DNA of 64,000 nucleotides from Gammaproteobacteria bacterium (lineage in GTDB: Bacteria > Pseudomonadota > Gammaproteobacteria > Xanthomonadales > SZUA-36). The DNA is taken from NCBI GenBank assembly GCA_024279945.1, contig JAJRRA010000071.1, positions 2,171 to 66,170 of the forward strand. Direction: 5' to 3'. The translations under genes and the position numbers were made by a program. Of the stretch, positions 15,136-17,408 are shown one piece after another. How positions within the stretch are numbered: position 1 is the stretch's first letter; every line of letters begins with the position of its first letter. A model generated the notes under the pieces. That model had not been told where the DNA came from. It saw nothing but the letters and a program-made list of their open reading frames with translations, and searched no databases.

Positions 15136-15149
15136 TTGACATGAGTCAA
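15136..15149 (+). promoter_or_regulatory. FNR/DNR-type box TTGAC-ATGA-GTCAA upstream of nirS
   Basis: Perfect palindrome matching the DNR/ANR half-sites (TTGAY-N4-RTCAA). A TACATT -10-like hexamer at 15171-15176 puts the box centre near -41. Confidence 0.6.
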
Positions 15150-15233
15150 TGAACCGTTACAGTCCTCAGCGTACATTGTGCAAAGTTAATGATTCATTAC
15201 TTATACCTTTATTATTCGCCTCGGAGTATCACC

Positions 15234-17369
15234 ATGAAAGCAAGTAGAATCCTGACATTAACCCTTGCGATGGCCGTATCGCTGGTGGCTTGCGCACAGG
15301 AAGACAGTGCTGCGCCGGCAAAGGCCGTCGACAGTGCGACGGCTGTTCATTCCGCTGAAGCATCCAGCAAATCACTGGAGGATCGTATTGCGGCCGGCGG
15401 AAAAGTATTTTCGACGGTTTGTGCTGCGTGCCACCAGGCTGAAGGCCAGGGCCTTGCCGGTGCATTTCCTCCACTGGCTGGATCCGACTATCTCGCCGGA
15501 GGTACCGGGGTCGTTCTAGACGCCGTGCTTAATGGACGCAGCGGGCCGATCACCGTCAATGGCAAAGACTACAATGGCGTTATGCCTAACCTGTCCTACC
15601 TCAGTGATGAGCAGGTGGCTGACGTTGTTACTTTTGTCATGAACTCCTGGGGCAATCCCGGTGGTGAGGTCAATACGGGCGAAGTAGCTGCCGTTCGTGG
15701 TGGTGCAAAGGTAACCGGGCCATCTGATCACCCGGTCACGGCCGGAGAAGAAATGGCCTACCAGGGTGCTCCCAGCGCGATTACCGGCGAAGGCACTACC
15801 GGCTATATCGACACCGAAGGGCCAAAAATGACCCTGGCTGAATTTGATTCCGCCACACAGATTTTCTTCGAACGCTGTGCAGGCTGCCACGGTGTGTTGC
15901 GCAAAGGCGCTACCGGCAAACCACTGACGCCGGATATTACTCGTGAAAAAGGTACTGATTATCTGAAAGCACTAATCACTTACGGTTCAGCCGCCGGCAT
16001 GCCTAACTGGGGCACCTCGGGCGATCTGACGGAAGAGCAGATCGACATCATGGCCCGTTACCTGCAGCATGAACCGCCGGCGCCGCCGGAATTTGGCCTG
16101 CCGGAGATGACCGCAAGCTGGAAAGTCCTGGTGAAGCCCGAAGACCGTCCGACCAAGCCTCAGCATGACCGTAACATCGATAATTTCTTTTCGGTTACGT
16201 TGCGCGATGCCGGACAGGTGGCCATCATCGACGGTGACACCAAGGAAATCGTATCCGTCGTTCCAACCGGCTACGCAGTACACATTTCACGTCCGTCCGC
16301 ATCAGGACGCTACATGTACACCATTGGCCGCGATGCCAAGGTCGACCTGATCGATCTGTGGATGAACCCGCCGCAGGTGGTTGCCGAAATCAAGATTGGT
16401 CTGGAAGCGCGTTCGGTTGAAACGTCCAAGTACAAAGGTTACGAAGACAAGTACGCTATTGCCGGCGCCTACTGGCCGCCACAATACGTCATCATGGACG
16501 CCGATACTCTGGCTCCGCTCAAGATCGTATCCACACGGGGTATGACTGTCGATACGCAGGAATACCACCCGGAGCCGCGTGTGGCAGCCATTGTGGCTTC
16601 ACATGAGTACCCGGAGTTCATCGTCAACGTCAAGGAAACCGGTAAAATTCTGCTGGTAAATTATGAAGATATCGAGAATCTCACTGTAACCAGCATTGGT
16701 GCAGCCCGTTTCCTGCACGATGGCGGCTGGGACAGCACCAAGCGTTATTTCCTGACGGCTGCCAACAAGTCCAACAAGATTGCAGTCATCGATTCCAGGG
16801 AACGTAAGCTGGTCGCACTGACGGATGTAACCAAGATTCCTCATCCGGGCCGTGGCGCCAACCTGCTTGATCCCAAGTACGGTCCCGTGTGGGTTACCAG
16901 CGCACTGGGTAACGCCAATATCACGGTGCTGGGTACGGATCCGGAGGGACATCCTGAAAATGCATGGAAGGTTGTTCGCACACTGGAAGGTCAGGGCGGC
17001 GGTTCGCTTTTTGTGAAATCCCATCCGAAGTCTTCCAACCTGTGGGTGGATGCACCCCTGAATCCGGATACCGCCATTTCCCAGAGCATTGCTGTTTTTG
17101 ATGTGAACAACCTGGAAGCCGGCTATGAGGTATTGCCGATCGCTGAATGGGCTGACCTGGGTGAAGGGGCAAAACGTGTGGTTCAGCCTGAGTACAACAA
17201 GGATGGAACCGAGGTTTGGTTCTCCGTGTGGAGTGGCAAGGAACTGGAATCCGCCATCGTCGTGGTGGATGACAAGACCCGTACACTGAAGCACGTGATC
17301 AAAGCGCCTGAACTGGTTACACCAACAGGCAAGTTCAACACCTATAACACAATGCACGATATTTACTGA
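15234..17369 (+). CDS. nirS: cytochrome cd1 nitrite reductase NirS with an N-terminal lipoprotein signal and an extra fused cytochrome c domain
   Basis: ORF 15189..17369. I prefer ATG 15234 (GGAG 7 nt upstream), which gives [20 protein letters not shown] (lipobox LVAC). There are two CxxCH motifs (CAACH, CAGCH). From [24 protein letters not shown] to ...[16 protein letters not shown] it reads end to end like Pseudomonas NirS. Confidence 0.9.
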
Positions 17370-17378
17370 TTGGATGCA

Positions 17379-17408
17379 GGGAGCCGGGCAACCGGCTCCC
17401 ACTTTTCT
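17379..17408 (+). terminator. rho-independent terminator after nirS
   Basis: GGGAGCCGG-GCAA-CCGGCTCCC (9-bp GC-rich stem, tetraloop) followed by ACTTTTCT. Confidence 0.7.

Follow-up and report, generated by a model that had tools for sequence, protein, structure and literature searches.

A conserved TonB receptor–nirS–porin module in gammaproteobacterial genomes without a known haem d1 pathway, and its possible role in haem d1 import

Introduction

How does a bacterium that carries the gene for a cytochrome cd1 nitrite reductase, and none of the known genes for haem d1, obtain the cofactor of its enzyme? The question is raised by a 64-kb stretch of DNA from a gammaproteobacterium of the SZUA-36 lineage (assembly GCA_024279945.1, contig JAJRRA010000071.1; hereafter the window). 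The window carries nirS, the standard denitrifier marker gene in environmental surveys, and no nir accessory, nor or nos gene was found within its 64 kb. A first-pass annotation of the window had described a NirS protein with a lipoprotein signal and an extra cytochrome c fused in cis, and had drawn attention to the missing haem d1 genes. Here we report that nirS is the middle gene of a conserved TonB receptor–nirS–porin module, the two outer genes of which had been overlooked. The larger finding is that this module is conserved in genomes that have no haem d1 pathway, which would make it kin to cofactor piracy through TonB receptors. From the gene content we consider it fairly probable that the source organism and its relatives are auxotrophic for haem d1 and take it up into the periplasm for insertion into NirS.

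Results

NirS of the window is a predicted three-haem lipoprotein with an intact d1 domain

The open reading frame (ORF) of nirS occupies positions 15189–17369 of the forward strand. Its most plausible start is ATG 15234, with GGAG located 7 nucleotides (nt) upstream, and the product has 711 residues. At the N-terminus, a basic n-region is followed by a hydrophobic core of 14 residues and by the lipobox L-V-A-C, which, read against the pattern [LVI][ASTVI][GAS]C, conforms to the signal peptide of a bacterial lipoprotein. The nearest relatives retain the lipobox as ISAC, LSAC, VSAC or MSAC. A start further downstream was not borne out, and the start and signal peptide proposed in the first-pass annotation are upheld. 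Among the NirS homologues as a whole, roughly half to 60% possess a lipobox and the remainder have ordinary signal peptides. In E. coli, Ala at position +2 predicts sorting of a lipoprotein to the outer membrane. NirS of the window would be lipidated and, as predicted from its +2 Ala, anchored in the outer membrane.

Three Pfam domains are recognized in the protein, namely Cytochrom_C (residues 52–139, 72 bits), a second cytochrome c (residues 203–277) and Cytochrom_D1 (residues 314–706, 496 bits), the last of which covers profile positions 2–368 of the PF02239 d1 beta-propeller. The extra N-terminal domain has the CXXCH motif, distal Met and profile match of a class I cytochrome c. Its best matches in the PDB are the c domains tethered to two copper nitrite reductases, 3ziy and 2zoo (E 1e-30 to 7e-29), followed by Thermus c552. 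Residues 172–711 are collinear with Pseudomonas aeruginosa NirS without large gaps (E 2e-269), the alignment with 1nir and 5guw being full-length. In this alignment the core ligands of the window protein (CAGCH 215–219, Met256, His350, His495 and His537) match P. aeruginosa Met88, the proximal His182 and the distal His327 and His369, and Tyr176 corresponds to Tyr10 of the N-terminal arm.

All of these residues are strictly maintained among relatives. C63, C66, H67 and M117 of the extra cytochrome are invariant in 81/81 sequences, as are the ligands of both haem c domains and all d1-site residues, including Tyr10, His327 and His369. Conservation is highest in the d1 domain, where the median identity is 82%, compared with 55% for the extra cytochrome and 38% for the linker. 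By these criteria NirS is a genuine cd1 nitrite reductase, intact and strongly constrained, for which haem d1 content and nitrite reduction are predicted; both the fused class I cytochrome and the complete reductase with its own CAGCH domain were correctly recognized in the first reading.

The fused form dominates NirS of the order

A scan of one genome per species returned at least 572 NirS relatives, and the locus statistics given below are drawn from the best 80. The N-terminal extension is found in all of these best 80, which are 66–85% identical over the entire protein. Their hosts belong to the Woeseiaceae, Marinicella, Wenzhouxiangellaceae, Arenicella, ‘Lysobacterales’ and a Chromatiaceae-type group, and comprise metagenome-assembled genomes (MAGs), isolates and closed chromosomes. 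In a separate sample of 401 genomes spread evenly over the order of the source organism (the order sample), nirS is present in 144, and nearly all of its ORFs encode 700–830 residues, the fused length. The fused form is the dominant NirS form in this order and not a rarity. A single in-frame TAG was seen inside the d1 domain of nirS in one MAG (L068; G036:C47:65755–66858).

Occurrence of the same fused ORF in at least 80 other genomes, closed chromosomes among them, excludes a frameshift that joined two genes artificially, a doubt that had been attached to the original description. The other doubt, that an identical fused NirS might already have been characterised, found no support in the literature searched.

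No known haem d1 pathway in the source genome and nearly all relatives

The source genome is a 3.92-Mb draft of 91 contigs and is 97% complete. NirS is its only Cytochrom_D1 protein, and the genome accordingly has no NirF or NirN. The top score of a NirJ search was 37 bits against a cut-off of 515, and the siroheme decarboxylase family PF17805 was not found, while archaeal controls were detected. Furthermore, tblastn searches of the genome with NirN, NirJ, NirF, NirD/L and NirC from the bona fide cluster of locus L054 returned only nirS and generic radical S-adenosylmethionine (SAM) matches. A d1 cluster elsewhere in the genome, which would have accounted for its absence from the window, was not found by this genome-wide search, nor were norCB or nosZ; the absence first noted for the window thus extends to the whole genome and to nearly all relatives. 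On another contig, a gene for a 471-residue radical-SAM protein adjoins that of a 364-residue beta-propeller (G000:C80:25138–26961; L002, L003), and these gave the only weak matches to NirJ and Cytochrom_D1; in our view the pair looks more like a maturation cluster for quinohaemoprotein amine dehydrogenase than like a nir cluster.

Among 50 genomes bearing fused NirS, NirJ is absent in 46, and about 42 have a single D1-domain protein. Consistently, exactly one D1-domain protein is encoded in nearly all (about 135) of the 144 nirS-bearing genomes of the order sample, one-contig genomes included, and NirJ is absent in 11/11 tested nirS-bearing genomes of at most 10 contigs, seven of which consist of a single contig. 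As positive controls, NirJ, NirF and NirN were detected in genomes G026, G031, G035 and G037, and also in G055 and G067. The idea that the d1 genes were missed through incomplete assembly, or that the fused ORF is a sequencing artefact, takes its plausibility from the state of the source genome, a draft in many contigs; it is effectively refuted, since one-contig genomes and isolates likewise have no d1 genes, the controls were found by the same searches, and at least 80 genomes carry the fused ORF with every ligand preserved.

A 2026 report assigns the keto groups of haem d1 to NirF and NirC (PMC13168839), and on this account the missing genes are pathway enzymes and not only chaperones. Judged by its gene complement, the source organism, which is without NirDLGH, NirJ, NirF and NirN, cannot make haem d1 by any known route.

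A TonB-dependent receptor accompanies nirS where d1 genes are missing

The gene directly upstream of nirS encodes a TonB-dependent receptor, and the one directly downstream an outer-membrane porin (Table 1). As judged by tblastn, the 80 loci keep the gene order receptor–nirS–porin despite a receptor identity of only 36–64%. In 71/80 loci, nirS has a TonB receptor gene no more than 3 kb away. The remaining nine comprise four NirJ-positive genomes, four loci with very short flanks and L082, in which the receptor is 5.6 kb away. When only loci with ample flanks are considered, no receptor is found within 6 kb solely in L054, L062, L067 and L070, which are the four NirJ-positive genomes; nirS of L054 sits in a classical nirCFDLGHJEN-norCBQD cluster. 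The receptor is thus missing exactly where d1 genes are present. By orthology, the window's receptor has a counterpart in 40/46 NirJ-negative genomes and in 0/4 NirJ-positive ones. The fusion and the receptor are separable traits, as the NirJ-positive genomes carry fused NirS too.

A different TonB-dependent receptor occupies the place beside nirS in L069, L071, L074, L075, L078, L081 and L084, all of which lack NirJ and the PhuR-like receptor of the window. This second family is not a haem family: its resemblance to the window's receptor is confined to plug-level similarity, and its scores stay below all NCBIfam cut-offs. Two unrelated receptor families therefore adjoin nirS. Members of the second family, which come from Chromatiaceae-type MAGs, are 47–55% identical to one another (e.g., L071:7428–9836, L074:13387–15717 and L081:6912–9653). 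What accompanies nirS through these genomes is limited to two kinds of gene, one for an active outer-membrane importer, in most cases from the tetrapyrrole-receptor family, and one for a channel.

The order sample gives a similar picture. Both nirS and the receptor are present in 135 genomes, nirS alone in 9, the receptor alone in 59 and neither in 198, which corresponds to an odds ratio of 50 when kinship among the genomes is ignored. The nine genomes with nirS alone include the d1 producers G055 and G067 and are otherwise mostly fragmented MAGs; most of the 59 with the receptor alone are Xanthomonadaceae-like genomes that carry paralogues. In the family of the source organism, the receptor is found in 30/30 genomes with nirS and in only two of more than 20 without it, one of the two matches lying at a contig edge and the other in the paralogue clade. 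In addition, presence of the receptor–nirS pair varies within six genera of this family, indicating that the two genes were gained or lost together repeatedly.

Family and regulation of the receptor

The window's receptor passes the NCBIfam models TIGR01786 (406 bits, cut-off 324) and TIGR01785 (371 bits, cut-off 317), contains FRAP and NPDL boxes, and aligns over its full length with P. aeruginosa PhuR (8the, E 1e-84), its best match among solved structures. In a tree of 81 receptor sequences, the 60 nirS-adjacent receptors lie on one side of a branch with a support of 99 in the SH-like approximate likelihood ratio test (SH-aLRT), and 21 paralogues, from nirS-free genomes or present as second copies, lie on the other. 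An axial-ligand signature that would tell the nirS-linked receptors from the paralogues was considered and rejected: the residues aligned to His124 and Tyr519 of PhuR, which we presume to be its axial ligands, are Gly and Asn in the window's receptor, and the PhuR-type His and Tyr are missing in both clades.

Two further receptor genes deserve mention. In the closest relative (L005; G001:C22:94910–97064), whose NirS is 85% identical, the receptor gene is split and the porin is absent; a 577-residue ORF covers receptor residues 183–743 and the 5' piece contains two in-frame TGA codons, so that the locus holds either a pseudogene or a long-read assembly error. The window itself encodes a second TonB-dependent receptor of 785 residues (positions 4779–7136, forward strand), which scores below all subfamily cut-offs, adjoins genes for a TetR regulator and a major facilitator superfamily transporter, and is unrelated to the nirS module.

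With an exact FNR/Dnr box defined as TTGAYN4RTCAA, two boxes are found in the 64 kb against 0.3 expected, one before the receptor gene and the other before nirS (Table 1), and a one-mismatch box, TTGACTCAGGTCAT, is located at 12764–12777. Among 54 related loci, a box with at most one mismatch precedes the receptor gene in 26, and 16 of these are exact against about one expected. By comparison, no Fur box with up to three mismatches was found for the receptor gene, which together with the FNR box places the receptor in the anaerobic rather than the iron-starvation regulon. Neither an ATP-binding cassette (ABC) transporter nor a haem-degradation gene was found near the receptor, whose neighbours are genes for an Rrf2 regulator and a SirB-like protein, nirS and the porin gene.

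The spacing of receptor and nirS is informative as well. A spacer of 70–150 nt, typical of Woeseiaceae, contains no box, whereas a longer spacer comes with a separate box for nirS; receptor and nirS thus appear to form one operon in many relatives. In this regard, the earlier view that nirS is monocistronic holds for the window, where the exact FNR/Dnr box and the terminator that had been proposed are both present, but not as a general rule. A palindrome, ATGCATTAAAATGCAC, at 12782–12797 falls in the interval from the FNR boxes to the receptor start codon, near the divergent Rrf2/NsrR-like gene, and is unique in the window. It resembles what we take to be the NsrR operator; as it is conserved upstream of the receptor in only 1/55 loci, we give an NsrR-like site here little weight.

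These observations bear on a different explanation, according to which the cargo of the receptor under anoxia is ordinary haem or iron, destined for the three-haem NirS, and d1 is made by an undiscovered pathway unrelated to NirDLGH, NirJ, NirF and NirN. Such a role would suit the haem/haemoglobin family scores of a PhuR-like receptor and the similar paralogues in nirS-free genomes, and an undiscovered pathway, or import of ordinary haem, would suit the axenic culture of Wenzhouxiangella AB-CW3 that used nitrate without nitrite build-up (PMC7691419). We nevertheless judge it unlikely. An importer of ordinary haem would hardly be expected under an FNR instead of a Fur box, without an adjoining haem ABC transporter or haem-degrading gene, gained and lost with nirS within genera and missing just where d1 genes are found, nor would a receptor from outside the haem family be expected in the same position in other lineages. 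An undiscovered pathway is opposed by the absence, throughout more than 130 genomes, of each of the four enzyme types known to be specific to d1.

The porin and other neighbours

The porin gene has no PDB match by sequence. Its AlphaFold2 model (predicted local distance difference test, pLDDT, 87; predicted template modelling score, pTM, 0.83) is an 18-strand barrel, and Foldseek matches it to OccK1/OpdK, OccAB and AlgE (E about 1e-15, TM score 0.7), the fold of an Occ/OprD/AlgE-type channel; the OccK/OprD members of this group are carboxylate channels. By tblastn, the porin is found in just over half of the 80 loci, mostly directly 3' of nirS. We propose that it may serve as a channel for small anions such as nitrite.

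On the other side of the receptor gene, two divergent genes are present (Table 1). A homologue of the SirB-like gene is found near the receptor or nirS in about 35/80 loci (tblastn), including loci with rearranged gene orders. The gene is single-copy in the source genome, and K7, H10, R24, D48, W70 and K74 of its product are conserved, with the conserved His in the first helix. The Rrf2 regulator scores 124 bits with the NCBIfam NsrR model, under the cut-off of 182, and its adjacency is limited to the nearest relatives (L005, L007, L008 and L068).

Table 1. Coordinates of the receptor–nirS–porin module and its surroundings in the window
Feature	Position	Strand	Basis or remark
SirB-like (PF04247) small inner-membrane protein	11730..12113	-	Pfam, 129 bits
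Rrf2-family regulator, NsrR-like	12142..12585	-	Pfam Rrf2, 118 bits; divergent from receptor gene
Exact FNR/Dnr box TTGATTCATATCAA	12696..12709	+	130 nt upstream of receptor start
PhuR-like TonB-dependent haem/haemoglobin-family receptor, 744 residues	12839..15073	+	Plug and barrel (Pfam); directly upstream of nirS
Exact FNR/Dnr box TTGACATGAGTCAA	15136..15149	+	85 nt upstream of nirS; overlaps -35-like TTGACA
NirS signal peptide with lipobox LVAC (Cys20, +2 Ala)	15234..15293	+	Read from sequence
Extra class I cytochrome c domain of NirS (CAACH 63–67, Met117)	15378..15659	+	PF00034, residues 52–139
Linker, N-terminal arm, haem c domain and eight-bladed d1 domain of NirS	15660..17369	+	Pfam and PDB alignment
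Intrinsic terminator downstream of nirS	17379..17400	+	9-bp stem, 8 GC pairs, T-run
18-stranded outer-membrane channel (OccK/OprD/AlgE-like), 413 residues	17451..18692	+	Weak Pfam Alginate_exp match; directly downstream of nirS

A truncated denitrification pathway and evidence from a pure culture

NapA is present in the source genome (1544 bits). NosZ was not found, and neither cNOR nor qNOR is encoded, the NorB and NorC queries from L054 giving no match. The genome has a truncated pathway, a state also described for Woeseiaceae at large (PMC12175321). Four haem-copper proteins are found in the genome: an aa3-type, a cbb3-type and a ba3-like B-family oxidase, and a divergent member of 456 residues. 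The last is encoded outside the window (G000:C77:23788–24975; L124:1372–2742, reverse strand), matches COX1 with 47 bits over the whole profile, and adjoins a bacteriohemerythrin gene and that of a DUF1329 protein. Assignment of this protein to cNOR or qNOR was rejected, as it has no NCBIfam call and no PDB relative by sequence; it may be regarded as a candidate atypical nitric oxide (NO) reductase.

One related organism is available in pure culture. A single-contig genome that is almost certainly that of Wenzhouxiangella AB-CW3 (G148) contains nirS, receptor and porin and lacks NirJ, NirF and NirN. Its locus (L135:4583–12179; G148:C1) encodes the porin, a 604-residue NapC/NirT-like multihaem protein that carries a long extension at its C-terminus, an unfused NirS of 548 residues and a divergently transcribed PhuR-like receptor. 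As this NirS is unfused, the link between nirS and the receptor and porin is independent of the cytochrome fusion. AB-CW3 grows anaerobically on nitrate (slowly) and N2O (fast) and not on nitrite, even at 2 mM (PMC7691419). The failure to grow on nitrite fits an apo-enzyme in axenic culture.

The same observations could be read as signs that NirS works independently of haem d1, either by using a different tetrapyrrole or as a semi-apo cytochrome engaged in electron transfer, binding of NO or O2, or a low-rate reaction, in which case its link to the receptor would concern something else. The lack of growth of AB-CW3 on nitrite (PMC7691419) and the atypical pathway of the source genome, without cNOR, qNOR and NosZ, would be in line with this. 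Such a NirS seems improbable to us, since the conservation of the d1 domain, in which the proximal and both distal His residues and Tyr10 are invariant, is hard to explain without d1 chemistry. In addition, NapA is present to supply nitrite, and Woeseiales nirS is transcribed in anoxic sediment layers (PMC7451513).

Discussion

A model for haem d1 import

The module combines a TonB-dependent tetrapyrrole receptor, a putatively lipid-anchored three-haem NirS and an anion-type porin, which would act together under anaerobic control of the FNR/Dnr type. In the model that we favour, other denitrifiers would release haem d1 and the receptor would bring it into the periplasm, where the lipid-tethered apo-NirS would bind the imported d1 directly. 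In vitro, apo-NirS acquires d1 spontaneously. As NirS has both its maturation and its function in the periplasm, a transporter in the inner membrane would not be needed. The lipid anchor may hold apo-NirS close to the receptor, and the fused cytochrome would most likely replace NirM or NirC as the electron entry, by analogy with three-domain NirK.

Several points weigh against this model. To our knowledge, free haem d1 has never been measured in sediments, no experiment is known to show d1 uptake by any organism, and in our full-text literature searches neither import of d1 nor auxotrophy for it was found described. The ligand assigned to the receptor is putative; no clade-specific ligand-binding signature emerged in the nirS-linked receptors, which are only moderately separated (35–40% identity) from the paralogues of nirS-free Xanthomonadaceae-like genomes. 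The group that makes d1 and serves for comparison is small, with six genomes from about two or three lineages, the co-occurrence statistic takes no account of kinship, and homology searches cannot exclude a novel d1 pathway. Finally, axenic AB-CW3 respired nitrate without accumulation of nitrite, and complete denitrification was reported for it (PMC7691419). Obligate import would be wrong if NirS of AB-CW3 removed the nitrite without added d1; another nitrite sink is possible.

Comparison with known systems

The window's NirS resembles that of P. aeruginosa (1nir/1bl9, nirSMCFDLGHJEN operon) in the haem c ligands, the d1 His residues, the Tyr10 arm and the upstream FNR/Dnr-type box, and differs from it by the lipobox signal and about 150 additional residues that form the linker and the class I cytochrome c. 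While the P. aeruginosa operon provides the accessory genes, the source genome is without nirM, nirC, nirF, nirDLGH, nirJ, nirE and nirN, and nirS is flanked by the TonB receptor and the porin instead.

In sequence, the extra cytochrome is closest to the tethered c domains of two three-domain copper nitrite reductases, RpNiR from Ralstonia pickettii (3ziy) and PhNiR from Pseudoalteromonas haloplanktis (2zoo). Both types of enzyme fuse a donor cytochrome in cis to a nitrite reductase. In RpNiR and PhNiR, however, catalysis is by copper NirK and the cytochrome is C-terminal, whereas in the window the enzyme is a cd1 NirS and the cytochrome is N-terminal, after the predicted lipid anchor. The fused donor cytochrome, in parallel with the tether of three-domain NirK, represents a clear case of convergent enzyme architecture. 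A C1-C2-NirS fusion was reported in 2022 (Microbiologyopen) and called unique to Chloroflexi (PMC8756737). It has, like the window protein, an extra cytochrome c before the c and d1 domains, a likeness of domain order. The restriction to Chloroflexi does not hold, as an analogous architecture dominates a gammaproteobacterial order.

The window's receptor shares with PhuR, ShuA and HasR the Plug and 22-strand barrel, membership of TIGR01785/TIGR01786 and the FRAP and NPDL boxes. It differs from them in lying outside a haem-iron operon with ABC transporter, haem chaperone and haem oxygenase, in its FNR rather than Fur box and in its tie to nirS. The proposed logic is that of BtuB for cobalamin and PqqU for pyrroloquinoline quinone, in which the enzyme is kept, the cofactor pathway is lost and the finished cofactor is imported through a dedicated receptor. 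Unlike in these systems, the cofactor would be haem d1 and its destination the periplasm, with no inner-membrane step, and import is proposed here from gene content.

Implications

More broadly, we lean, if only slightly, towards the view that haem d1 is a shared community resource, and that an order with nirS and no d1 pathway, to which Woeseiaceae, Marinicella and Wenzhouxiangellaceae belong, depends on the d1 of its neighbours through receptors recruited at least twice from unrelated families. Woeseiaceae are among the most abundant bacteria of marine sediments, where their nirS is abundant and transcribed. If d1 import is true, counts of nirS genes or transcripts would not measure an autonomous capacity for nitrite reduction. 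Maturation of NirS would be possible without NirF and NirN, TonB-dependent receptors would gain a new class of substrate, and the three-gene module would constitute a minimal transferable nitrite reductase unit. Nitrite reduction by these bacteria would hinge on a cofactor made by their neighbours, a new cross-feeding dependency in the nitrogen cycle that would be comparable to cobalamin auxotrophy.

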